From the IMG/VR virus record IMGVR_UViG_2728369182_000007: a stretch of DNA of 48,325 nucleotides; one strand, 5' to 3'. Shown here piece by piece: positions 9,545 through 42,375 of this stretch. Each line of letters starts with the position of its first letter. Within the stretch, counting starts at the first letter, position 1. This DNA is from a virus (taxonomy: Duplodnaviria; Heunggongvirae; Uroviricota; Caudoviricetes). A model generated the notes under the pieces. That model saw only the letters and a program-made list of their open reading frames with translations. It did no database searches and was not told the DNA's origin. The position numbers were made by a program, and so were the translations under genes.

Positions 9545-10251
9545 TTACTGCGAAAGTTTGTTAATGGAAAGGAAGCCGCCAAAGTTGCCGACGTTATTGN
9601 NNNNNNNNNAAACTTACAGCCGCTCAGGCATTTGCTGCATTTATCCTTCGTGATATCGGAAGTCGGCTGATCATATTCATCCGCGACCGCCGGACCGTGA
9701 TAACCGCACTCATCACCGCGATAGGTCCAGGTGCAGGTATTAGCCAGCATGATGCGCCCCGGAAAAACGGCACCATCCGTTTCCGTCGGTGTGGACAGTA
9801 CAAAGGAGGCACTGACCGCACTCAGTTCGCTGCACTGCTCGATGCGCCAGCGGCTGATCACCTCCTGCTCCGGATCGGCGTCGCTGTTTCCGTTGACGAA
9901 GTTCACCGCATCCAGAAAACGGGCGTAAACCTTACGCCTGACCACCGTTCCGCCGACCAGACTCTGCAGATCTTCCACCATCCCGGTGACCATACCGTAC
10001 AGGTTAGAAACCGTCAGCGTGGGGCGCGTACTGGTGCCTTTGCCATTCAGTTCAAAACTACTCCCCTGAATGGGATACGGCTGATACTGTCGCCCCTGCC
10101 AGGTGACCGGCTCACCTTTTTCGTTCTGCTCATTACAGAAAAAATAACGTTCTCCACCGACCTCTGTCAGATCGATTTCCCAGAGCACCACGCTGGCCGA
10201 CTGCTCCGCACGGGTGCATTCATTCAATGTTTCCTGCCGGATATCCTGCAT
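9545..10251 (-). CDS. L: minor tail protein L (contains 10-N gap)
   Basis: MQDIRQETLNECTRAEQSASVVLWEIDLTEVGG... lambda L-like; C-terminal CSKCLSGCKF Cys cluster precedes gap. Confidence 0.8.
9600..9609. other. assembly gap (10 N)
   Basis: run of N. Confidence 1.
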
Positions 10252-10580
10252 CAGTTCACCACCTGTTCAAACTCTGCGCTGAACTCAACACGCAGCATAC
10301 TGACCCGCGACGACCATTTTGCGCAGGTCACCTTTATCTGCCTGTAACCATAAGGCGGCGTCCACAGAAAGGCCTTCCAGCCCCCGTGCTCAGCCAGAAA
10401 CGACTCCAGCGCCGTGGCCTCCTCACGGGAGACAGACAGCGTCACGCTGTACGTTTTCAGGTCAGCGTTCAGCCCGGCAGGCGCACGCTGGGAATAGCCA
10501 TCACCAAAGCGCACCTCCCTGACGGAAGGAGCCGATGTCACATCCATCCCGGGTTTCACTTTCCAGCGGAAGGTTTTCAT
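10251..10580 (-). CDS. M: minor tail protein M
   Basis: 109 aa MKTFRWKVKPGMDVTSAPSVREVRFGDGYSQRAPAGLNADLKTYSVTL... lambda M-like. Confidence 0.85.
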   Translation of the reverse strand: MKTFRWKVKPGMDVTSAPSVREVRFGDGYSQRAPAGLNADLKTYSVTLSVSREEATALESFLAEHGGWKAFLWTPPYGYRQIKVTCAKWSSRVSMLRVEFSAEFEQVVN

Positions 10581-11300
10581 CGTCCACCTCCGGAGAACAG
10601 ACCACCATCGCGCATCTGTGCCTGGATTTCATCACGGGCACCCTTGCGGGCCATGTCATACACCGCCTTCATCATCTGTGGACCTGGCAGACCATTCGTA
10701 CCGTCGTTCTGAATCACCACGTTGTTGTTCTGCTCAAACCTGATACCCTCTGAACGCCGCATTTGCGCCGGACTTCCGGTGCCACCGACATAACCGCCGG
10801 TGGCATAGCCGCGCATCAGCCGGTAGAGATTTCCCACGCCAATCCGGCTGGTTGCCTCCTTCGTGAAGACAAATTCACCACGGTGAACAATCCCCGCTGG
10901 CTCATATTTGCCGCCGGTTCCCGTAAATCCTCCGGTTGCAAAATGGAGTTTCGCCGCAGCGGCCTGAATGGCTGTACCGCCTGACGCGGATGCGCCGCCA
11001 CCAACAGCCCCGCCAATAGCGCTGCCGATACTCCCGACAATCCCCACCATTGCCTGCTTAAGCAGAATTTCTGTCATCATGGACAGCACGGAACGGGTGA
11101 AGCTGCGCCAGTTCTGTTCACTGCCGGTCAGCATCGCCGCCATATTCTGCGCAATACCATCAAAGGTCTGCGTGGCAGCACTTTTAACCTGCGACATACT
11201 GTCCGTGGCACTCTCTTCCCACTCACTCCAGCCGGACTTCAGGCCTGCCATCCAGTTCCCGCGAAGCAGGTCTTCAGCCGCCCAGGTCTTTTTCTGCTCT
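10577..11300 (-). CDS. H: tail tape measure protein H, C-terminal fragment (5' end in gap)
   Basis: Gly-rich C-terminal region typical of lambda H C-terminus; upstream truncated by N run. Confidence 0.75.
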
Positions 11301-27589: not shown

Positions 27590-27805
27590 TTACTCTCCCC
27601 GTGCAGCCTTACGCTTGTCTTCTCTGATTTTGAAGTACAGATTTGTCAGATAAGTCAGGAAGCCCAGAACCAGACTCCCCAGAACACCAATCGCAGCCCA
27701 CTGTGACGGACTGACCTGATCAAGCCACTGTAAAAACCAGTAGCCAGCACTGCCTGCGGAGGTGCCGTAGGCAATGCCCGTTGAAATTTTGTCCATGGAT
27801 TTCAT
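27590..27805 (-). CDS. S: pinholin (S21-like), dual-start MKSM
   Basis: 71 aa [71 protein letters not shown], matches phage 21 pinholin as recalled. Confidence 0.85.
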
Positions 27806-27865
27806 AGCCTCACCTCCGCAAATAACGGATGGCGTAGTTTTACACTGAGAAATGAAAGGGATTTG

Positions 27866-27890
27866 AAAAGAAAAACCCGCAAAAGCGGGC
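27866..27890 (-). terminator. terminator-like hairpin upstream of holin
   Basis: CCCGC-AAAA-GCGGG stem followed by U-tract on minus strand. Confidence 0.4.
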
Positions 27891-28097
27891 GAAACGATAT
27901 ATACAGAAAGGAAAGCACTCTATCCAACAAACCACCCACAGTTGATCGGAATAAAAGCAGAGTGCTTATGAATGATCGCCTGCCCGAAGGTTAGTATTTC
28001 TGCACAGCAATTTTGCAAAAAAAGGCGATCATTCATAACTTAAACGTCTTTCAGTCACTCCGGGATTTCCCATCATCGCAGACTGAAAGACTCTGAC

Positions 28098-28172
<75 letters not shown>

Positions 28173-28175
28173 ATA

Positions 28176-28251
<76 letters not shown>

Positions 28252-28253
28252 AC

Positions 28254-28330
28254 TGGACCGCCACCGGGGACTCGAACCTCGCACTCTCAACTTAAAGGGT
28301 TGACGCTCTTTCCTGATGAGCTAGTGGCGG
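28254..28330 (-). tRNA. tRNA-like gene with anticodon loop CCUUUAA (apparent anticodon UUU, C33)
   Basis: Manual fold: acceptor CCGCCAC/GTGGCGG, D-arm, anticodon stem TCAAC/GTTGA, T-loop TTCGAGT, CCA; non-canonical C at position 33. Confidence 0.5.
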
Positions 28331-28331
28331 T

Positions 28332-28407
28332 TGGTGGCCCTTGCTGGATTTGAACCAGCGACCTGGCGATTATGAGTCGCTCGCTCTCACCACTGAGCTA
28401 AAGGGCC
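28332..28407 (-). tRNA. ileZ: tRNA-Ile2 (anticodon CAU, ileX/ileZ-like)
   Basis: Manual fold; sequence GGCCCTTTAGCTCAGTGGTGAGAGCGAGCGACTCATAATCGCCAGGTCGCTGGTTCAAATCCAGCAAGGGCCACCA closely resembles E. coli ileX as recalled. Confidence 0.75.
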
Positions 28408-28529
28408 ATATGCGGAATAATACTTATGCCAGTTTAGCTCTGCAATACCCTACCCTGATTAAATCCTGCATATTGGCCTACACATGATAAAAGAATCTGA
28501 GCGGTCAACAGAAAGTTACTCAGGCAATA

Positions 28530-29249
28530 TTAACGAACTCTGACTACATTAATTTCAAAGTCATCAATCTGCCCGCTATTAAGTATAACGAATGCAGAAC
28601 TCCCATTACTGTACGATTTCGATAAAACCAGACGATCATCATAGCGTGCAAGAACGTAATACCAAGTATTCTCATAGTGGATCGTCTGATATTCCCTCTT
28701 AAACTGGGGTTTATACCAACCGGCAATAAGAGAGAATGTCCAGAAATAAATCATGAATCCAGCCATAATAAACTCAATTCGGTGATGGCGAATAAAAGAC
28801 ACTTCCGAAAAACATTTGACTGAAATAAGTCTTCTTCCTGACCTGACAAAAAGCGTAATTGTAAAGGCAGCAATAACACAAAAAAACAGCACATCTGGCT
28901 CAACGTGCTGATGAATTACCGAAAACTCCAGAACAGGCGGAATAAAAAGCAGCAATATTGCCAGAAAAAGTCTGATAAAACTCAAATTCTGTATATTGTT
29001 TTTTTGTTTTATGCCTAAAAAGAAAACAATACCTACTCCCCATCCAGTAAGGAATATAACGATAACGCTCACAGCATAAAACAAACTTCGGGCCACATCA
29101 TCAACGCCAACCCCGACGATCCACCATGGAAAGCCATAGTAAAAGGAAGTCCCCCATCCATAGAAATAAGCGCTTCCCCATCCAAGACAGCCCATATAAG
29201 CAATAAAAAGTGAAGAGTTCCTCAGCAGAGTGCTGTCATCCATACCCAT
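28530..29249 (-). CDS. AT-rich polytopic membrane protein of unknown function (239 aa), cargo gene between tR' and tRNA cluster
   Basis: ORF with 4-5 predicted TM segments rich in W/Y/F/G; local GC visibly lower than flanks; no family recognised. Confidence 0.55.
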   Translation of the reverse strand: MGMDDSTLLRNSSLFIAYMGCLGWGSAYFYGWGTSFYYGFPWWIVGVGVDDVARSLFYAVSVIVIFLTGWGVGIVFFLGIKQKNNIQNLSFIRLFLAILLLFIPPVLEFSVIHQHVEPDVLFFCVIAAFTITLFVRSGRRLISVKCFSEVSFIRHHRIEFIMAGFMIYFWTFSLIAGWYKPQFKREYQTIHYENTWYYVLARYDDRLVLSKSYSNGSSAFVILNSGQIDDFEINVVRVR

Positions 29250-29382
29250 CTCTCTAACAATTTTAAAACATCAACTCATCTTACATAACAAAGGAGATTC
29301 CATGCAGTCAAGAGACTTCAGAGCAGGAGAAACTCATTGCGCAATCGCCATCACGTTTAACGTTATGCACCGCTTTCCAGAT

Positions 29383-29408
29383 ATAAAAAACCCGCTCGAT
29401 GGCGGGCT
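29383..29408 (-). terminator. late terminator tR' downstream of Q
   Basis: CCCGC-TCGAT-GGCGGG hairpin followed by T6 on minus strand, ~85 bp downstream of Q stop. Confidence 0.65.
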
Positions 29409-29439: not shown

Positions 29440-29480
29440 GCCCATCGTTAGAGCAAATTTACCACAGATTCGGGAAAAAT
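29440..29480 (-). promoter_or_regulatory. candidate late promoter pR' / qut region
   Basis: Minus-strand TTGATT ... 16 nt ... TAAATT between Q stop and tR'; would make a short 6S-like transcript. Confidence 0.3.
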
Positions 29481-29488
29481 CAACAACA

Positions 29489-30310
29489 CTATCGCGTTAC
29501 CCTCTTTAACTGCCGCTCCGCCCATGCCTCTTCAATGTCAAACCGAACCACCAACGTATCGTAAAAGCGTTTCACTGATTTTTTCCACGTATCAAGCGTG
29601 ATAGCACTCGTCACTTTGCGTATGGCATTAAATGCCTCCGTTGATGGTAGTCTTTCATAGCCCCGACCGCCACAACGCTGGCAGTTCCTGATTACAGGCA
29701 TACCCCGTTTTTCCGACTCTTCACGATGAATGGCAACACCACGCCCACGGCAGTCTTTACAGGCAGTGGAAATCTCCCCCTTCCCTTTACATTCAGGACA
29801 AGAAACTTTCACCACCTCCCGGATTTTTTTCCATTCTTCCCAGTAAGACGGATACACACCTTTCGTACACTTTGCCCATACTGGCGGCTTGCCATCCGGA
29901 TACTGAACCTTGTTTGTAAAAACTTCGCTTTCAATAAATTTTTCCCCTCGGCAACAGGGGCACTGCTTTTTACTCGCTGCGCTGCGGGCATAATCCTCAA
30001 AAGCATACGAAGCCATAATGCGCATCACTGCCGGTTTTATTTCTGCCGGAAGTTTTCTTAACGCCGCCACGCGATCGCACTGACTTAATGCATAATCTGC
30101 CAGTAATTCTGTTGCCCGCGCCCTGTCATTCATACTAATACCCATTTTCCCCAGGAACGCAGAAAATCCCATCTCAGCCCGGTTTTGTGTCATACCCTGC
30201 GCAGCCATCACATCAGTGATGCTCAGCGCATCTTTTGACGTCGAGACGGATGCATCAGTCAGGCCTGGCGATTTTGGGGAATAGTATTTCGGTAAATCTT
30301 CCAGTCTCAT
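29489..30310 (-). CDS. late antiterminator Q-like protein
   Basis: 273 aa with multiple CxxC zinc-binding pairs, directly upstream of pR'/tR' and downstream of rusA as in DLP12/Qin prophages. Confidence 0.75.
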   Translation of the reverse strand: MRLEDLPKYYSPKSPGLTDASVSTSKDALSITDVMAAQGMTQNRAEMGFSAFLGKMGISMNDRARATELLADYALSQCDRVAALRKLPAEIKPAVMRIMASYAFEDYARSAASKKQCPCCRGEKFIESEVFTNKVQYPDGKPPVWAKCTKGVYPSYWEEWKKIREVVKVSCPECKGKGEISTACKDCRGRGVAIHREESEKRGMPVIRNCQRCGGRGYERLPSTEAFNAIRKVTSAITLDTWKKSVKRFYDTLVVRFDIEEAWAERQLKRVTR

Positions 30311-32346: not shown

Positions 32347-32583
32347 AGCCTGCTTCTCCTTGCCTTTCGGCACGTAAGAGGCTAACCTACATGTGTTCAG
32401 CATGGATTGAGCCTCAGATTAATGTTAAGCGTCTTGCAGGACGCGTAATGTTAACTGGGGCTTTTCTCTATCTGCCTTTTGGTGTTCATGCCTGAGGCAG
32501 ATAGCCTCAAGCACCCGCAGCAATTCTACTTAACTCACGTCACCTCGCCAATATGAAATCAATCAGAAAGGTGATCCATAAAA

Positions 32584-33270
32584 TCACTCCTTCTCTTCTT
32601 TTCCGTAGTGGAGTTGGCCAATTTTGATAAGAGGGCGCCCCTGAGATTTGCGGTGTAGATTGGTATCGCGCAGAGAATACACACAGCCACAATATTCCTG
32701 CTGATAGAATTTTTCGCGCTTGCTGATTTCAATCATACGGGACGAGCCGCCCTGCTTGCGCCAGTTATAATCCCAGTACACCATACCCGGATAATGCGCA
32801 ACAGCTCGCCGCCCACACTCGTTAACCTGCTGCATATTTTTCCAGCGTGAAATGCCCAGTGAACTGCTGATCACACTGAAACCATTTTCAGCAGCGTACA
32901 ACGCTGTCCGCTCAAAACGCATGTCAAAACACATGGTACAACGGATCCCCCTCTCAGGCTCCCATTCCATTCCTTTGGCACGTTCAAACCAGTTGTCGGT
33001 GTCGTAATCAGCATCGATAAACGGCACGCCGTGTTGTTCAGCAAAGCGAATATTTTCATCCTTACGAATTAAATACTCTTTCTGAGGATGAATGTTCGGG
33101 TTGTAGAAAAAGATGGTGTAGTCGATTCCCGAGGCCTGAAGCGCCTCCATCACTTCACCGGAACATGGAGCACAGCAAGAGTGCAGTAGTAGTTTGTTTG
33201 CCCCGTTTGGGAGCTCCAATTTAGGCCGTTTGAAATCAGCAATAGTCATAAATATTTTTATTGGGGTCAT
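32584..33270 (-). CDS. DUF208 / QueH-like protein (putative epoxyqueuosine reductase)
   Basis: 228 aa with N-terminal [14 protein letters not shown] motif and further conserved Cys ([16 protein letters not shown]); family assignment from memory. Confidence 0.5.
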
Positions 33271-33423
33271 GAAAATAGCACAGAGTGTAGCATCAGAGCA
33301 GGGCTATCGGGAATATATGTCTAAATCTGGTAATATCTGGTTTTGACGCAAAGCGGACAACCACGCTGGCTCTACCCTGCGCCATGAAAATGTCAATTCA
33401 CATCTGAACTAATGCTCTTTAAT

Positions 33424-35329: not shown

Positions 35330-35863
35330 TTATCTGTCGATACCCCAGCACGCCAGCGCGCTCTCCTGGTCACGACGGGATACCTGACCGTAACAGTTGT
35401 TTGAACGAATACGGCAGTCTCTGCCACCGTCCTTAATCCACCAGCGAATCGCTTCGCAGGCACCTTTTCGATCACCAGCATTAATTCGTCTGTAAAACGT
35501 CGACGGGAAACACTTACCGGGACCAATGTTGTACGGACAGAATGACGCGATCCCCGCTTTCTGGGGTTCGGTCAGCGGCACTCTGATGTTTTTCTCCACC
35601 CACGCCAGCGCTTTATCACGCTCAATGGCGTTAACCTGGTCGCATTTTTCCTTCGACAACTTCATGCCCGGAACGACAGGTTTGCCATCCACCATGATGG
35701 CACCACGGCAGATGGTCCAGATACCTGCACCATCACGGTATGCCGTGGTGTGGTTGCCTTCCTTTTCATCCAGAAACTGGTCGAGAATGTCAGGCGCAGG
35801 CGCACCAGCGGCAATCAGCGCCAGAACGGCAGCCGACAGGCCGTATTTGATTTTGGTGTTCAT
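35330..35863 (-). CDS. R: SAR-endolysin (second copy)
   Basis: 177 aa, homologous to 26682-27215. Confidence 0.8.
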   Translation of the reverse strand: MNTKIKYGLSAAVLALIAAGAPAPDILDQFLDEKEGNHTTAYRDGAGIWTICRGAIMVDGKPVVPGMKLSKEKCDQVNAIERDKALAWVEKNIRVPLTEPQKAGIASFCPYNIGPGKCFPSTFYRRINAGDRKGACEAIRWWIKDGGRDCRIRSNNCYGQVSRRDQESALACWGIDR

Positions 35864-35899
35864 GGATATATTAAATATTCAGCCGCTGTCCCTGGCCCA

Positions 35900-36793
35900 C
35901 TAAATACGCACTTTAAGATAAGTCAGCCCCGGATGAAGCCAGTAAGCCGGCACTTTTTTAAAGGGTGGAGTATTAAAATCACGAAGAAGAGCCTCCCGCA
36001 CAATTGCATCCTTATCAGCACCACTGGCCAGCGCTTCAATCTCAGCGGCTACCTGAAGATATCCCATGCAACGGCCAACGCGCTTCATCAGCCCCTGCTT
36101 TTTATTGTTCTTCAGGTAATCAATGGCAAATTCAATGAGCTCCTCACTGTGCTGGTGCGATGGAGGTGTTACTTTCCCATTTTCTGAGATGGTTATTTTC
36201 CCAGCATCACCGGATACAACAAAGGATGGCCGGTTACACTCCCATTCCGGGTCACTGAAATTATCATTATGAATACTGAAACACTCTGCGAGATTTCTGC
36301 TCATCACTTTCCGACAATAATCGTCAAACGCAGCAAACTGCTTTTCATCGCCAGAAGGCACCAATATCGACCATTTCTTATTCAGCTCAACGACGTAGCT
36401 CTCCAGTTTTTCAATACGTGATTCAACATCATCTTTTTCTGACCGCAGTGTTGACGGCGGCATCTTCAGAGAACAAGTAATTCTTCCCGGTAGCTTTCCT
36501 TTGTAGGTTATCAACACATCCTGCGCCTCTAAAATTACGGGGCGCTTTTCCGGCAACGGTTCGTTCCATTCACATAACCCGGCAGCAACATCCATGAAAA
36601 ACTGCTTCGCCTGCTTTTTCGCCTCAGCTTCGTAAAACTCCAGCGTGGCACCTTCAGTACGGTCAAGACTAATCGCCACATCTGGCAACAACAGCGACGC
36701 TTGCCCGTCACCTTCCGACTTCACAGTAACAGTAACCTTATCCCCGTAATTATTTATCCCCTTAACAACCAGTTCATATTTTTTATTCATCAC
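35900..36793 (-). CDS. hypothetical protein (297 aa) between holin and endolysin
   Basis: N-terminal ~100 aa homologous to the 104-aa ORF at 27271-27585, plus ~190 aa extra C-terminal region. Confidence 0.55.
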   Translation of the reverse strand: MMNKKYELVVKGINNYGDKVTVTVKSEGDGQASLLLPDVAISLDRTEGATLEFYEAEAKKQAKQFFMDVAAGLCEWNEPLPEKRPVILEAQDVLITYKGKLPGRITCSLKMPPSTLRSEKDDVESRIEKLESYVVELNKKWSILVPSGDEKQFAAFDDYCRKVMSRNLAECFSIHNDNFSDPEWECNRPSFVVSGDAGKITISENGKVTPPSHQHSEELIEFAIDYLKNNKKQGLMKRVGRCMGYLQVAAEIEALASGADKDAIVREALLRDFNTPPFKKVPAYWLHPGLTYLKVRI

Positions 36794-36794
36794 T

Positions 36795-37010
36795 TTACTC
36801 TCCCCGCGCCGCCTTACGCCGGTCCTCTTTGATTTTGAAATACAGGTTAGTCAGGTACGTCAGCAGCCCAAACAGCAGACTCCCCAGCACGCCTATTGCC
36901 GCCCACTGAGACGGGGAAACCCTGTCCAGCAACTGCAGGAACCAGTAGCCCGTTCCCACCGCTGACGTGGTGTATGACACACCTGTTGTGATTTTTTCCA
37001 TCTGGTACAT
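36795..37010 (-). CDS. S: pinholin (S21-like), dual-start MYQM
   Basis: Start placed at [10 protein letters not shown]... (71 aa) by analogy with copy 1; six-frame ORF extends to 37064. Confidence 0.75.
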
Positions 37011-37086
37011 ACCCCGTCTCCCGTTATCCGGAAGCTCACAACAATATAAAGACCACCGGCACACACCGATGGTCCCTTGCGCAGGC

Positions 37087-37332
37087 TTACATCATCATGT
37101 CGCTGTCAGGTGTGGGTTCACCGCCATCTGAAGCACTCCCGTCACCCGCGATACCTTCCGGCTCCGGAACCGCTGGTACGCCCAGCAGCTCATCCAGAAT
37201 GGCATCCACTTCTGCATCAAGACGCGACTCAAGGTTCTGGCGGAGTTTCTGTTTCAGTGCGCTCAGGACTTCTTCAGAGCGCAGGACTTCCTTCACTGCC
37301 TCAGCAGTGACCAGGGATGTGATTTCTGACAT
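37087..37332 (-). CDS. hypothetical acidic protein (82 aa)
   Basis: Start placed at [16 protein letters not shown]...; between nanS-p and holin. Confidence 0.4.
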
Positions 37333-37369
37333 GGGATTTTCTCGTTGAAAGGTGTTGTCAAGAAAGTGA

Positions 37370-37552
37370 CTACGGAATGAGCGGATCTTCGGGTTTGCTT
37401 CCGGCTGACTGACTGGCGCTGATTCTCTCAGCGGCCCTTTTATCAATCTGCCTGCGCCAGAAATCGCGCACTGCCCTGTACCCACCCGAAAGAAGATACA
37501 TAACACAGACTGCCATACAGAAGTACAGCATTACCTGATGAATAAATGTCAT
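37370..37552 (-). CDS. hypothetical small membrane protein (60 aa)
   Basis: ORF with one hydrophobic segment directly downstream of nanS-p. Confidence 0.35.
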   Translation of the reverse strand: MTFIHQVMLYFCMAVCVMYLLSGGYRAVRDFWRRQIDKRAAERISASQSAGSKPEDPLIP

Positions 37553-37688
37553 AATTTCTTACCGTTATGGTTGACAATGAGAACTGTTTTCATTTAGAAA
37601 TGATTGATGTCGAAAGCATCTTTTCTTTACATTCTCCATTGGGATTACCTCCGCCAGCTTCCATTCCTGCCGCTGGCGGCTTTTTTTA

Positions 37689-39665
37689 TCATGCCGCGAT
37701 GTCCGCGTTGTTCACTTCCACCTTCACACTGTCAATCAGCAGCGTATATGTCGCCGCCTTTGATATGCCTGTCAGTTGCAGTTTGTCCGCCGCCCCTGAT
37801 GCCGGAGATTTCACCAGTGTGAACGGCGTCCCCCGTTTCTCATCCAGTACCGGCGTCACCTGAATGCTGTTGTTTCCGGCAAACTCAAAAGCCAGTGTGT
37901 GCCATCCGTTATCAAAGACCCCGAACGTTTCCAGCTTCGCATTCGGCTTCTTGTGGTGCATCGCGTTCAGGTTCGTCGCATCCGTCTGCAGAAAGAAGGA
38001 CATCAGCATGTCGTTGCCTTCCTCTGCCAGCGTCACTCCCTCCGGCAGGGACGACAACTGCCAGTAAATGCCCAGGGCAAACTGATTCGGCACCAGTGAA
38101 CCCGGCAACTTAAACCGTACGCTCACACGTCCCCCCTTCTTCAGTAACTCCACTCCCTGTCCGGCTGCATCATGCTCCAGAAACCAGATGTGGTTTTCCG
38201 GTTTATTCAGTTGCAGGGCCTTACCTCCCGTAGCCCCCGCATCACTGACCACCGCTTCAGCAATGTTTTTGTTAACATTGTCTCCGCTCGCCGGTTTGTG
38301 ATAATAGCGCCAGCCCTGTGATGCCAGGTCTTCGCCGGACGCCAGCAGACTCATCAGGGTTCGGTTACTGACCGGGGCTTCCGGCTCTCTCTCCGTACCT
38401 TCACCGGAAGGTCCGGTGGGCTTCACCGTATCAGGCTGTTTTCCGGTAATGAATTCAGCGTTTCTCCCGGCATGCACAAGAATCGCCGTTGCCAGACGGT
38501 CGGAAATAATCCCACGACGTGCCCATGATCCAAAATGCGTTTTACGGTCAGCCGTCGTCCAGGTTTTGGCGTCCGTTCGACCACCGGCTCCGTAATACCC
38601 AATATCCGCAACATCCGGATCTTCTGACGGCTCGTTGGTACCCACATTTCGCCCGTTTTCATCCGTCATAAACGGCACAAAGAAGATTTTTTTTGCGGAT
38701 TTCGTCTTGTATGCACCATACACCGCATCGTATTGCGAAGAATAAGTCTGCTTCCAGTAGTAGGTCGTGTCGCCACAAATCCAGGGAACCGATGACGGAG
38801 AGCCCCCGAGACACTGACCTCCGAATTCCGACAGGTCAGAACGATATTTTTCCACCATGGAATCAAACAGCCCCGGCTGGGTGGCGTATGCACCCTGTTT
38901 CAAATCAAACTCGCCCTGCATCCAGACCACTGCAAGCAGAATATTTTTAGGGTTGGCCTTCAGTGCGGCCTGAGTACGGGTAAGCAGGTCCTTGTACAGT
39001 GGCTTATCTACACCCCAGCGTGCCGAGGTCTCGCTTGCGCCGGTGGATTCGCTGAAGGTACCTTCATCGCCCGCCAAAAATGCAGAACCACCACGGCAGC
39101 ACGGAACCAGAAGAATACCGGCATTCGCCGGAATAAACGGCAACAATTTCTTCGCGATATGTAATCCCTGCCCCACGCATCCATACTGAGCTGCACTGGC
39201 TTTCGGGTGTGAAAACTTACTCAAATCCTGAACATCATGCAGGCAGTGGTCCGCAGGAATAATGTCATTGTAGTTACAGAACGCACCACCCGGCGTGACA
39301 GTGCTGCGACGCGCCAGCTGTTTAATACGCGGGTCCGGACGGTCATATGTCTCCGGCAGCGGAAGCCCTTCACCATACGCCATACCGTTTGACTGCCCGG
39401 CCAGGGCAACAACAAAGTAATACTCCGGGTTGCTGGTGGTGCTGATAACTGCGCCTTCTCCATCCGACGGCTTCACCACCACAGGTGTGGTGACATCACC
39501 TTCCGCCGCAATGGCCTGCATCAGGGTATAAGGCGTGATGGCCACCGGACTGCCAAATGGCTGCCACCCCTCCTTCAGTTTTTGTGTCAGTCGTTTCGCA
39601 AGGTCTGACGGCGATGCCGCCCTGACAACATCATAGTGTTTAAATGCCATGGTTCTTTCCACCAT
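37689..39665 (-). CDS. nanS-p: prophage sialate O-acetylesterase NanS-p-like (DUF1737 plus SGNH esterase)
   Basis: 658 aa; N-terminal MAFKHYDVVRAASPSDLAKRL... region and GQSNM esterase motif (…VALAGQSNGMAYG…); canonical position of this gene in Stx phages. Confidence 0.75.
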   Translation of the reverse strand: MVERTMAFKHYDVVRAASPSDLAKRLTQKLKEGWQPFGSPVAITPYTLMQAIAAEGDVTTPVVVKPSDGEGAVISTTSNPEYYFVVALAGQSNGMAYGEGLPLPETYDRPDPRIKQLARRSTVTPGGAFCNYNDIIPADHCLHDVQDLSKFSHPKASAAQYGCVGQGLHIAKKLLPFIPANAGILLVPCCRGGSAFLAGDEGTFSESTGASETSARWGVDKPLYKDLLTRTQAALKANPKNILLAVVWMQGEFDLKQGAYATQPGLFDSMVEKYRSDLSEFGGQCLGGSPSSVPWICGDTTYYWKQTYSSQYDAVYGAYKTKSAKKIFFVPFMTDENGRNVGTNEPSEDPDVADIGYYGAGGRTDAKTWTTADRKTHFGSWARRGIISDRLATAILVHAGRNAEFITGKQPDTVKPTGPSGEGTEREPEAPVSNRTLMSLLASGEDLASQGWRYYHKPASGDNVNKNIAEAVVSDAGATGGKALQLNKPENHIWFLEHDAAGQGVELLKKGGRVSVRFKLPGSLVPNQFALGIYWQLSSLPEGVTLAEEGNDMLMSFFLQTDATNLNAMHHKKPNAKLETFGVFDNGWHTLAFEFAGNNSIQVTPVLDEKRGTPFTLVKSPASGAADKLQLTGISKAATYTLLIDSVKVEVNNADIAA

Positions 39666-39910
39666 CTGAAAAATAATTCTTTAAAATACCTGACATGTAA
39701 TACAGAAAAAACACAAAACCATACCTTAAATAAAAACCTCATCATCAAGCAGATATGCATGGATAAACTACAAGACGAGATATAAACCACCCTGCATTTA
39801 AATAAACAATAAACAACATCAGAAAAATAATTCTGCTCTATGGTTTACATTCAAAAATATCATTTATACTTTTCAGAACATCACCAGCAAGACATAAACA
39901 AGGAAACTAA

Positions 39911-40246
39911 ATGAAGTGGATTGTGATTGATACAGTTATCCAGCCATCATGCGGAATATCTTTTTCAGTCATATGGAGTAAAATAAAATTAATAATCTGG
40001 TATCAATCGGATGCTTTCTTACCTCCTGAAAGTATATTTACACTGACTCACACAGGTATCATGCTCAATAACAAAGTGCTACCTGTAACCATTTACAACG
40101 TAGCACCATTCAATAAAACATTCTGGAATTTAATCAAAAACAGCCAGGAATGTCCTACAAATACAGATAACGTATTGAATGAATGCTTTAATAACCGTTG
40201 CACTCTGCAAATATGTCCTTATGGACTAAAACAACAAAGTCCATAA
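39911..40246 (+). CDS. hypothetical Cys-containing protein (111 aa), only convincing plus-strand gene
   Basis: AAGGA RBS 7 nt upstream of ATG; AT-rich; convergent with surrounding minus-strand genes. Confidence 0.4.
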
Positions 40247-40272
40247 GGAGTTTACTCACATCTGACAAAATC

Positions 40273-40294
40273 AATATAAACAGCCCCTCCGGAG
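40273..40294 (-). terminator. rho-independent terminator (minus strand)
   Basis: CAGCCCCTC-CGGAG-AGGGGCTG hairpin followed by TTTATATTGATTTT on minus strand. Confidence 0.55.
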
Positions 40295-40693
40295 AGGGGC
40301 TGGAGAGTGGCGCTATGTGCCATTGCATGGTGCCGGGTGCCTCCCGGTGAATTCAGTACCAGCACCTGAATCCGCGATTATCCCATATACCTACTCGCTG
40401 ATTGCCCCTCCGCACAGGGGGATTCACCATGCCAGTTTCTTTTAACAAACTCCCCGCAAACCAGACAACAGTCAACCGCCTGAATTGTGAAGTATTTAAA
40501 AATTTCTCCCGCTAACTGATACCCGGCTAACAGTCTGGCGTTTTCTTTTTCAGCAACGGGAAAGCAACAACCACCACACCCGCCACCAGCACACCGTCAG
40601 CCAGCACTGACATTATCCGGCTGCTGCAATGCCACTCACAAAAACAGTAAGCAATCACTTTTTACCGTAACAAGTGATAATCCAGATATGTAT

Positions 40694-41047
40694 CTACCCC
40701 AGATGAGTAATCCGAAGTTCATCCATACCACAGGTACTGGCTATTCTGTTGTACTCCTGAACAAGAGCAAATAATTCTGAATTAGCAACCATGAACTCAT
40801 CGCAAACCCTCTGTATAGCATCACTATTCAGAATAATAACGTCTCTTCCCGAAAGACGATCAGGAGTACAGAACAAAACTGTCAAACGGCTGAAGGCCTT
40901 TGCTCGTCCTGCATTGACTATATCAATACGCTGCCTAAGGATGAAACACCCCGACGCCTCATCAATATTCACTCTACCCACACCATATGAATGATAAATA
41001 TTTAATGCTGAAAAAACCATTAGACCGTATAACAAACACTCAATCAA
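40694..41047 (-). CDS. hypothetical protein (117 aa) in stx-equivalent position
   Basis: AT-rich ORF directly downstream of tRNA-Arg; no similarity to Stx subunits by eye. Confidence 0.4.
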   Translation of the reverse strand: MIECLLYGLMVFSALNIYHSYGVGRVNIDEASGCFILRQRIDIVNAGRAKAFSRLTVLFCTPDRLSGRDVIILNSDAIQRVCDEFMVANSELFALVQEYNRIASTCGMDELRITHLG

Positions 41048-41160
41048 TACTTAACAGAACTTTTATTTTTGACAAACATAAAATATTTTCAACAATATCC
41101 TGAGCCAGGTATATTTCAGTATAAGGCTCTGCCGGAAGGAATCTGGAAGAATGAATATAG

Positions 41161-41234
41161 CGCGCTGTACTGGATTCGAACCAGTGACCGATTGCTTAGA
41201 AGGCAATTGCTCTGTCCGGCTGAGCTAACAACGC
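41161..41234 (-). tRNA. tRNA-Arg (anticodon UCU), CCA not encoded
   Basis: Manual fold: acceptor GCGTTGT/ACAGCGC, anticodon stem ATTGC/GCAAT, loop CUUCUAA, T-arm CACTGG-TTCGAAT-CCAGT. Confidence 0.7.
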
Positions 41235-41247
41235 TGAATACCGATAA

Positions 41248-41327
41248 TGGACCGCCATCGGGGACCCGCCCCCGCACCAACAACCCTGTTATCGTGTCGT
41301 CTGCTCTTCCTGATAAGCTAATGGCGG
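41248..41327 (-). pseudogene. degenerate tRNA-like sequence (homologue of tRNA at 28254-28330)
   Basis: Shares acceptor and D-arm with the copy-1 tRNA but no pairable anticodon stem or canonical T-loop found by manual folding. Confidence 0.4.
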
Positions 41328-41334
41328 TTTGTGA

Positions 41335-41410
41335 TGGTGGCCCTTGCTGGATTTGAACCAGCGACCTGGCGATTATGAGTCGCTCGCTCTCACCACTGAG
41401 CTAAAGGGCC
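41335..41410 (-). tRNA. ileZ: tRNA-Ile2 (anticodon CAU), second copy
   Basis: Identical or near-identical to 28332-28407. Confidence 0.75.
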
Positions 41411-41449
41411 GGGAGCAGAATAATAACGGTCCGTAATTAATTCCGCAAT

Positions 41450-41472
41450 AAAAAACCCGCTCGGCGGCGGGT
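41450..41472 (-). terminator. late terminator tR' downstream of second Q
   Basis: CCCGC-TCGGCG-GCGGG hairpin plus T6 on minus strand. Confidence 0.6.
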
Positions 41473-41553
41473 TGTAGAAACTCTTCTAACGTCAGGCATA
41501 AAAAGCCCATTATTATGACGAATTTACCACAGATTCCGGAAAAATCAACCTTG

Positions 41554-42375
41554 TTACCTAGTTACCTTTTTTAACTGCCGCTCAGCCCATGCTTCTTCAA
41601 TATCAAACCGGGTCACCAGCGCATCATAGAATTTCTTAACTGTTTTTTCCCATGACGCGCGTGTTATCTGGTTTGTCACCTCGCATATAGCATTAAATGC
41701 CTCCGTTGATGGTAGTCTTTCATAGCCACGACCACCACAACGCTGGCAGTCTCTGATAACAGGCATACCACGTTTTACCGACTCTTCACGATGAATGGCG
41801 ACACCACGCCCACGGCAATCCTTACAGGCGGTGGAAACCTCACCCTTTCCGCCACACTCCGGACAGGCAACTTTTACCACCTCCCTGACTTTTTTCCATT
41901 CTTCCCAGTAAGACGAATACACACCTTTCGTACACTTTGCCCATACCGGCGGCTTACCATCCGGATACTGGACCTTGTTTGTAAAAACTACGCTTTCAAT
42001 AAATTTTTCCCCATAGCAACAAGGGCACTGCTTTTTACTCGCTGCGCTGCGGGCATAATCCTCAAAAGCGTACGAAGCCATAATGCGCATCACTACCGGT
42101 TTTATTTCTGCCGGAAGTTTTCTCAACGCCGCCACACGATCGCACCGACTGAGTGCATAATCTGCCAGTAATTCTGTTGCCCGCGCCCTGTCATTCATAC
42201 TGATGCCCATTTTCCCCAGGAACGCAGAAAAACCCATCTCAGCCCGATTCTGTGTCATGCCCTGCGCGGCCATCACATCAGTGATACTCAGCGCATCTTT
42301 TGACGTTGAGGCCGATGCATCGGTCAGGCCAGGGGATTTTGGGGAGTAGTATTTCGGTAAATCTTCCAGTTTCAT
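41554..42375 (-). CDS. late antiterminator Q-like protein (second copy)
   Basis: 273 aa, ~95 percent identical to 29489-30310 by eye. Confidence 0.75.
   Translation of the reverse strand: MKLEDLPKYYSPKSPGLTDASASTSKDALSITDVMAAQGMTQNRAEMGFSAFLGKMGISMNDRARATELLADYALSRCDRVAALRKLPAEIKPVVMRIMASYAFEDYARSAASKKQCPCCYGEKFIESVVFTNKVQYPDGKPPVWAKCTKGVYSSYWEEWKKVREVVKVACPECGGKGEVSTACKDCRGRGVAIHREESVKRGMPVIRDCQRCGGRGYERLPSTEAFNAICEVTNQITRASWEKTVKKFYDALVTRFDIEEAWAERQLKKVTR

Follow-up and report, generated by a model that had tools for sequence, protein, structure and literature searches.

In a 48,325-nucleotide stretch of viral DNA (IMG/VR record IMGVR_UViG_2728369182_000007, class Caudoviricetes; the whole stretch is called the window below), a late region of a lambdoid Escherichia coli prophage carries a compact AT-rich insert directly behind its late terminator tR'. 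This insert, at 28408-29382 on the minus strand, contains a single membrane-protein gene, which is very probably a real gene of the STM1630 family inserted as cargo. We propose that the insert is a moron, and that its product would act as an autonomous lysogenic-conversion factor of the cell envelope; to this reading as a whole we assign a probability of roughly 40%. The insert and its gene lie as follows:

28408..29382, minus strand: inserted AT-rich cassette, its extent judged against a second late region in the window
28530..29243, minus strand: coding sequence of the STM1630-family (PF27470) inner-membrane protein, 237 amino acids (aa); the alternative start at 29249 gives 239 aa

The open reading frame (ORF) of 239 aa from its first ATG, which a sequence-only reading of this DNA had placed at 28530-29249, is present on the minus strand. 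Its translation likely begins two codons later, at the ATG at 29243 (M3), to give a product of 237 aa: this is the start in all homologues and in the RefSeq PGAP annotation, and its spacing from a GAGAG Shine-Dalgarno sequence is the better one. The contrast in base composition that had been seen by eye against the flanking genes is borne out by computation over sliding windows. GC content is 39.4% in the ORF (37.9% at third codon positions) and 51.4% in the window, a z score of -2.5 that places the ORF in the lowest 1.4% among all 720-bp windows of the stretch. Since every examined copy of the family is AT-rich (32-41% GC), the low GC is a trait of the family and not peculiar to the present insertion. 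Full-length ORFs are kept among homologues from 88% to 16% identity, and the pairwise dN/dS ratio between homologues is 0.06-0.18 where dS is unsaturated; at the level of sequence comparison, this shows a real gene under purifying selection.

The codon usage of the ORF departs from that of the other phage genes, with AUA and AGA/AGG enriched about threefold (AUA 21 per 1000 codons, against 6.8 per 1000) and GGA about twofold. The correspondence of these codons with the adjacent CAU (annotated as Ile) and Gly-UCC tRNAs, at 5-7 codons each, is suggestive at best. A terminator-like hairpin also lies within the ORF (28879-28910, minus strand; a 9-bp stem followed by T7). It falls where the protein is little conserved and is probably a product of chance, but could attenuate Q-independent transcripts.

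Where no family had been recognised in the protein, the comparison with current catalogues places it in one, known as STM1630, PF27470 or phrog_1521. The match to phrog_1521 (E=6.5e-86) runs from residue 19 to 239 against positions 1-221 of a profile of 222, and the PHROG annotation reads 'unknown function'. An identical RefSeq protein, WP_000342820.1, is named 'STM1630 family protein' in the newest annotations, and PF27470, which the gene tables label 'TfpB', is carried by the 97%-identical cluster representatives and by all 96 homologues obtained in a search of 5.8 billion clusters. A direct Pfam/NCBIfam scan of the protein with libraries that predate the PF27470 model gave no match, and a Pfam scan of 36 aligned members gave scattered single matches only. 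The Salmonella homologues beside SseJ, at the STM1630 locus, are 49-50% identical over residues 3-239, and the family motif NSSMLLAYLGGLGWG can be read from the deletion primer published for STM1630. The family is small, with 71 representatives at 50% identity among 1.84 billion proteins. Identical DNA is present in many genomes of extraintestinal pathogenic E. coli, including IHE3034 and the uropathogenic E. coli (UPEC) strain UPEC 26-1, and of 5426 complete E. coli genomes 460 contain the gene by blastn at a coverage of at least 80%, often more than once. The gene belongs to a catalogued, widespread and uncharacterised family and is not a new kind of element.

The status of the segment as an insert follows from a second lambdoid late region within the window (35330-42375, minus strand; late region 2), the presence of which means that the window holds either tandem prophages or a prophage and a remnant. 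The parts of the two late regions that enter the comparison are these:

29489..30310, minus strand: late antiterminator Q of late region 1 (Q1), 273 aa; PF03589 at E=1.4e-50, phrog_127, RefSeq 'antitermination protein'
29456..29483, minus strand: probable late promoter pR', TTGATT-N16-TAAATT with TG before the -10, conserved in both late regions
29383..29408, minus strand: late terminator tR', a GC-rich hairpin with T6, from the terminator scan
28098..28407, minus strand: tRNA cluster of late region 1 (CAU, Lys-UUU, Thr-UGU, Gly-UCC), from ARAGORN, Rfam RF00005 and the RefSeq annotation
41554..42375, minus strand: Q of late region 2 (Q2), 90% identical to Q1
41160..41410, minus strand: tRNA(CAU) and tRNA-Arg of late region 2
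37689..39665, minus strand: DUF1737/SASA/DUF6645 esterase of late region 2, 658 aa
35330..35863, minus strand: lysozyme of late region 2

Late region 2 further carries DUF826 and a 297-aa DUF1327 protein. Over approximately 118 nt after the Q2 stop codon, a stretch that takes in the pR'-like promoter and the hairpin of tR', the alignment to late region 1 is good, and the two regions diverge straight after the T-run of tR'. From this T-run to the first tRNA the distance is about 35 nt in late region 2, against about 975 nt, with the ORF, in late region 1. The segment of about 975 bp is thus an insert, since it is missing from a late region whose Q is 90% identical and whose tR' is the same. Deviant composition and absence from the same site in a related late region are among the marks by which a moron is recognised, and the segment displays both. 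The suggestion of acquired cargo in the sequence-only reading has thus held up, given the foreign composition, the location in the variable stretch between Q and the lysis genes and the absence from the paralogous late region 2. Late region 2 has an AT-rich segment of its own: the most AT-rich stretch of the window (about 39350-41100, minimum GC 0.34 in a 720-bp window) lies there between the tRNAs and the esterase, contains only small ORFs without a Pfam match (39911-40246, plus strand; 40694-41047, minus strand) and looks like another piece of cargo.

The position behind Q is recurrent. In 70 of 80 IMG/VR contigs the gene is the first after Q, at a median distance of 257 bp, and the Q in question is one of three unrelated-looking types; a fourth type (DUF1133) stands upstream in locus L079. 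What follows the gene varies among the IMG/VR loci and comprises tRNAs, a 65-aa ORF with a DNA methyltransferase, DUF3927, a SASA esterase, stx2, or the holin directly. The location between tR' and the tRNA cluster, as it had been described, is correct, but its equation with the slot of the Shiga toxin (Stx) genes is not, for in Stx phages stx lies 3' of the tRNAs and the present gene lies 5' of them. In the Stx2k prophage of STEC719 (NZ_CP041411.1, 1-4134) the order is Q, the gene, the 65-aa ORF, a helix-turn-helix protein, tRNA Ile/Arg/Arg and stx2k, and two IMG/VR contigs carry the gene together with stx2A in the same arrangement. In these loci the gene follows Q immediately and the tRNAs and stx2 come later, so that the gene coexists with stx and does not replace it. 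It is distinct from stx, not an alternative to it, and recurs as the opening gene of the late transcript.

The region immediately upstream of the gene is conserved as well. Two invariant blocks, TTGAC and TTTGTTATG, separated by a variable N15 spacer of which 12 variants occur, are present in 74 of the 80 viral loci, and the motif TTGAC-N15-TTTGTTATG always lies 39-41 nt from the ATG. It is found again in phage 434 and in a plasmid of enterotoxigenic E. coli (ETEC), with differing sequence further upstream. The occurrence of an invariant motif at a fixed distance in so many loci suggests that the gene has a promoter of its own, plausibly of the sigma-70 type:

29282..29311, minus strand: candidate sigma-70 promoter of the cassette, TTGACT, an 18-nt spacer and the extended -10 TGtTATGTA, assigned from the conserved motif

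The prediction of a polytopic membrane protein agrees with both the hydropathy profile and the structural model. Kyte-Doolittle analysis gives four segments above 1.4 in addition to an aromatic- and Gly-rich first helix, and AlphaFold2 places five long helices at residues 12-38, 49-80, 91-113, 118-140 and 157-183, followed by a five-strand beta domain at 186-237. The model reached pLDDT 84 and pTM 0.78 when distant representatives were included in the alignment, and pLDDT 60 on a shallow alignment only. Counts of Lys and Arg over 36 members put the N-terminus and the loops 81-90 and 141-156 on one side of the membrane, taken as the cytoplasm, and loop 39-48 and the C-terminal domain on the opposite side. 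The predicted topology is accordingly one of five transmembrane (TM) helices with a cytoplasmic N-terminus and a small, presumably periplasmic, C-terminal beta domain. Conservation peaks in TM1, in loop 1 (…AYxYGWGxSxYYGFPWW…), at the start of TM2 (ARSL), at the end of TM5 and in the first half of the beta domain. The residues under the strongest conservation are aromatic or Gly-rich and lie at the predicted periplasmic face; a conserved aromatic patch comprises Y28, Y30, W32, Y37, Y38, W42, Y197 and Y198, and the family alignment contains no catalytic-looking polar residue that is conserved family-wide. A sequence profile search of the PDB returned nothing below E=3.5; Foldseek gave a best E of 0.65 against the PDB, with insignificant hints of MscS and integrase-SH3, and a best E of 0.14 against BFVD.

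Members of the family also occur outside phages. The Salmonella homologues adjoin sseJ. On the ETEC plasmid NZ_CP122817.1 (3501-6228) a copy with 79% nucleotide identity, flanked by insertion sequences (IS), lies 867 bp from eltAB in divergent orientation and might be left over from a phage origin of the heat-labile toxin (LT) locus. Another homologue is found among IS elements on a 294-kb invasion-type plasmid, that of Citrobacter rodentium adjoins an LpxR remnant, and UTI89 has a pseudogene copy by the iro island. Klebsiella pneumoniae harbours a distant PF27470 subfamily in a conserved block of a SRAP (YedK-like) gene, the family gene and umuDC, to which one genome adds a reverse transcriptase and a resolvase, with a SASA esterase nearby; the block looks like a cargo region of mobile elements. 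In Haemophilus ducreyi, Neisseria animaloris, Actinobacillus equuli, Avibacterium and Mannheimia the homologues are isolated single genes between unrelated housekeeping genes, and further named members come from Pasteurella, Gallibacterium, Conchiformibius and Uruburuella. The named members thus belong to Enterobacteriaceae, Pasteurellaceae and Neisseriaceae only, and all the named hosts are associated with animals. A conserved partner gene is absent from the examined contexts.

In the window, late region 1 reads on the minus strand as RusA, Q, the tR' hairpin, the ORF, the four tRNAs, a second terminator-like hairpin and an S21-type holin, beyond which come a DUF1327/YdfR protein, an endolysin, Rz/Rz1, an HNH endonuclease and the terminase. 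The last hairpin and the holin gene lie as follows:

27870..27890, minus strand: terminator-like hairpin just before the holin gene, from the terminator scan
27590..27805, minus strand: class II (S21-type) holin, the first lysis gene; PF04971 at E=1.4e-35

The candidate for pR', which we take to resemble the lambda pR', scores under the threshold of the promoter scan, and tR' is shared by late region 2, phage 434 and further E. coli prophages. The two CAU tRNAs (28332-28407 and 41335-41410, both on the minus strand) are called Met by ARAGORN, and the identical gene is called Ile by RefSeq/PGAP; the latter call implies a lysidine-modified tRNA that reads AUA. The Rfam scan found the four tRNAs and nothing else. 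The 238 nt between tRNA-Gly and the holin gene (27860-28097, minus strand) are strongly structured (-84.4 kcal/mol, z = -5.9 against shuffled sequences) with no Rfam match. They hold a 13-bp inverted repeat (28024-28036 and 27968-27980) and end in the hairpin at 27890-27870; the stretch could be a barrier that spares the lysis genes Q-independent transcripts, or a structured RNA. In the early region before Q (about 32500-33300 of the window) lie hokD, a type I toxin gene, and a gene for the epoxyqueuosine reductase QueH, an unusual metabolic gene in a lambdoid prophage; in the identical prophage of UPEC957C this region is at 9782-10840.

What could be the role of such a cassette? We hypothesize that 28408-29382 is a moron in the form of a compact foreign promoter and one gene, placed directly behind tR' of a lambdoid prophage and encoding a 237-aa inner-membrane protein of the STM1630/PF27470 family. 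Expression could follow two routes. In the lysogen, the cassette would be transcribed from its own sigma-70-type promoter, probably repressed by H-NS as in Salmonella and conditionally switched on; after induction, it would be reached by Q-antiterminated read-through from pR'. The terminator before the holin would exclude the Q-independent transcripts from the lysis genes. Because there is no conserved partner gene, the protein would work alone, presumably as an envelope factor of lysogenic conversion that binds or alters a periplasmic or inner-membrane component in animal-associated bacteria, and its role would not lie in phage assembly or lysis. The existence of homologues outside phages, in chromosomes and on virulence plasmids, argues against a purely induction-time role. 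A bolder extension, which we consider unlikely, would see in STM1630/PF27470 envelope factors of a new class, each encoded by one gene and of a fold without precedent, spread by lambdoid phages in the first position behind Q, landing repeatedly beside major toxin and effector genes, and acting periplasmically through the conserved aromatic surface to alter the envelope for animal colonisation and phage-host interplay.

The Salmonella homologue supplies the published background for this proposal. STM1630 is a gene of unknown function that is bound by H-NS (PMC6785131, PMC2639726), and it is owing to this binding that it seemed 'essential' in transposon screens. It is expressed in medium inducing Salmonella pathogenicity island 2 (SPI-2) and in macrophages, and signature-tagged mutants were attenuated in calves and chicks (PMC6785131, PMC2639726). 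According to the published STM1630 literature, the gene is silenced in ST313 strains by two single-nucleotide polymorphisms in the -10 element. The deletion mutant grows normally (PMC6785131).

Several observations weigh against the proposal of an envelope factor with its own promoter. Deletion of STM1630 in strain 4/74 increased intramacrophage replication instead of decreasing it (PMC6785131), and a follow-up study that confirmed 7 of 24 mutants did not reproduce, for STM1630, the hypermotility that one screen had reported; as a whole, the phenotypes in Salmonella are weak or inconsistent. The candidate -10 element, TATGTA, lacks the canonical final T and the promoter was not reported by the consensus scan, so that the conserved upstream motif could be something other than a promoter. 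In the interval from the stop codon at 28530 to the first tRNA at 28407 the scan found no terminator, and the nearest one further on is at 27890; without a terminator of its own, the cassette is not a textbook moron. The constant place as the first gene behind Q would be equally consistent with late, Q-dependent expression being the relevant kind. The three Lys/Arg residues right after TM5 fit poorly with a periplasmic C-terminus, in a topology that is a prediction only.

Other functions can be envisaged for the same gene. Superinfection exclusion, or anti-phage defence by a single protein, would keep the DNA of incoming phages out, as P22 SieA, T4 Imm or HK97 gp15 do, or would abort infection; it would suit a single AT-rich membrane-protein gene in the variable cargo region of a prophage, with a probable promoter that would permit expression in the lysogen, with several copies per genome in different prophages, and with a Klebsiella subfamily amid mobile-element genes that include a reverse transcriptase. 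We nevertheless hold it to be improbable, as 5027 PADLOC models gave no credible match, isolated chromosomal homologues exist in Pasteurellaceae and Neisseriaceae, one homologue is co-regulated with SPI-2 in Salmonella, and the family is restricted to animal-associated taxa. The PADLOC model for AbiC did match, in 2 of 36 members, but the alignment (best E = 0.0037, 14.8 bits) covers a transmembrane stretch and was dismissed as composition noise. An accessory of type IV pili or a related envelope machine, tuning the assembly of pilins or pseudopilins like TfpY/FimB, is suggested by the precomputed Pfam label PF27470:TfpB, which we take to refer to a Moraxella ORF of unknown function that lies in the pilin-inversion region. 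To our knowledge, all of the host taxa have type IVa pili. TfpY-like proteins are of similar length (about 235-245 aa) and are likewise anchored in the membrane by their N-terminus with a periplasmic C-terminal domain, but TfpY/FimB combine three TM helices with a larger mixed beta-sheet domain (PMC11841053), where the present protein would have five helices and a beta domain of about 55 aa. With neither a pilin nor a pilus-machinery gene adjacent in more than 10 examined genomic contexts, there is little to recommend this function. The Acinetobacter TfpB, a pilus-extension ATPase, shares the name and is an unrelated protein.

A late function in the phage cycle itself, be it antiholin-like timing of lysis or a membrane toxin made only on induction, might be read from the place of the gene: it opens the Q-dependent late transcript, immediately precedes the lysis cassette, keeps this place with four Q types and has no terminator of its own before the downstream genes. 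Against this stand the lack of any match to holin, antiholin or spanin families in Pfam and PHROG, the separate presence of holin, endolysin and spanins in late region 1, the related prophages (late region 2 included) that do without the gene, the homologues that lie behind other upstream regions far from lysis genes in chromosomes and plasmids, and the normal growth of the Salmonella deletion mutant (PMC6785131); we rate such a function lower still. Finally, pseudogenised and IS-disrupted copies, as in UTI89 or with the IS1 insertion in KE51, and numerous truncated database entries might be taken for signs of a chance or decaying ORF in AT-rich junk, devoid of function. The selection analysis effectively refutes this (dN/dS 0.06-0.18, with saturated synonymous sites), and the conservation of motifs over three bacterial families and the confident structure prediction speak against it too, leaving it next to no credence.

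Part of the significance of the gene lies in the company that the family keeps, since its recurrent neighbours are stx2, eltAB, sseJ/steB and the DNA of invasion plasmids. It is a common gene that heads the late operon of lambdoid and Stx phages, yet for no family member can a function or a recognisable fold be named. Should the upstream motif prove to act as a promoter, the gene would be one of lysogenic conversion, expressed in uninduced pathogens, and an inexpensive, well-defined target for the functional study of prophage contributions beyond toxins. The question of interest is what a common Q-proximal gene that travels with toxin genes does.

Among known systems, the TfpY/FimB-like proteins (PMC11841053), compared here by description only, resemble the window protein in size, in their N-terminal membrane helices, in a periplasmic C-terminal domain containing beta structure and in their poorly defined function. 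They differ in having their genes beside the pilin gene, where PF27470 genes are never seen in the examined contexts, and in three helices with a larger two-sheet domain instead of the five helices and small beta domain of the model. The classical lambdoid morons (bor and lom of lambda, gp15 of HK97, stx) share with the cassette a deviant composition, absence from close relatives, a location between conserved modules and, probably, expression independent of the phage programme; in contrast to them, the cassette has no terminator of its own, and its product has no relation in sequence or fold to Bor, Lom, gp15 or Stx. Closer is the 'putative membrane protein' CPT_434_68 of phage 434, with WP_001302581.1 of E. 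coli O157 prophages, which is 57% identical and likewise comes after Q and a terminator with the TTGAC...TTTGTTATG motif. There, however, the Q is Q82-like, the genes that follow are DUF3927, a small membrane protein and a SASA esterase without tRNAs, and the annotated N-terminus is 10 residues longer. STM1630 of Salmonella Typhimurium is alike in its full-length homology, its size of 237-238 aa, its AT-richness and predicted architecture, and in being a single gene without a partner. It sits in a chromosomal islet between steB and sseJ with another upstream region and promoter, whereas in the window the gene comes first after the Q of a lambdoid prophage, behind a different conserved motif.

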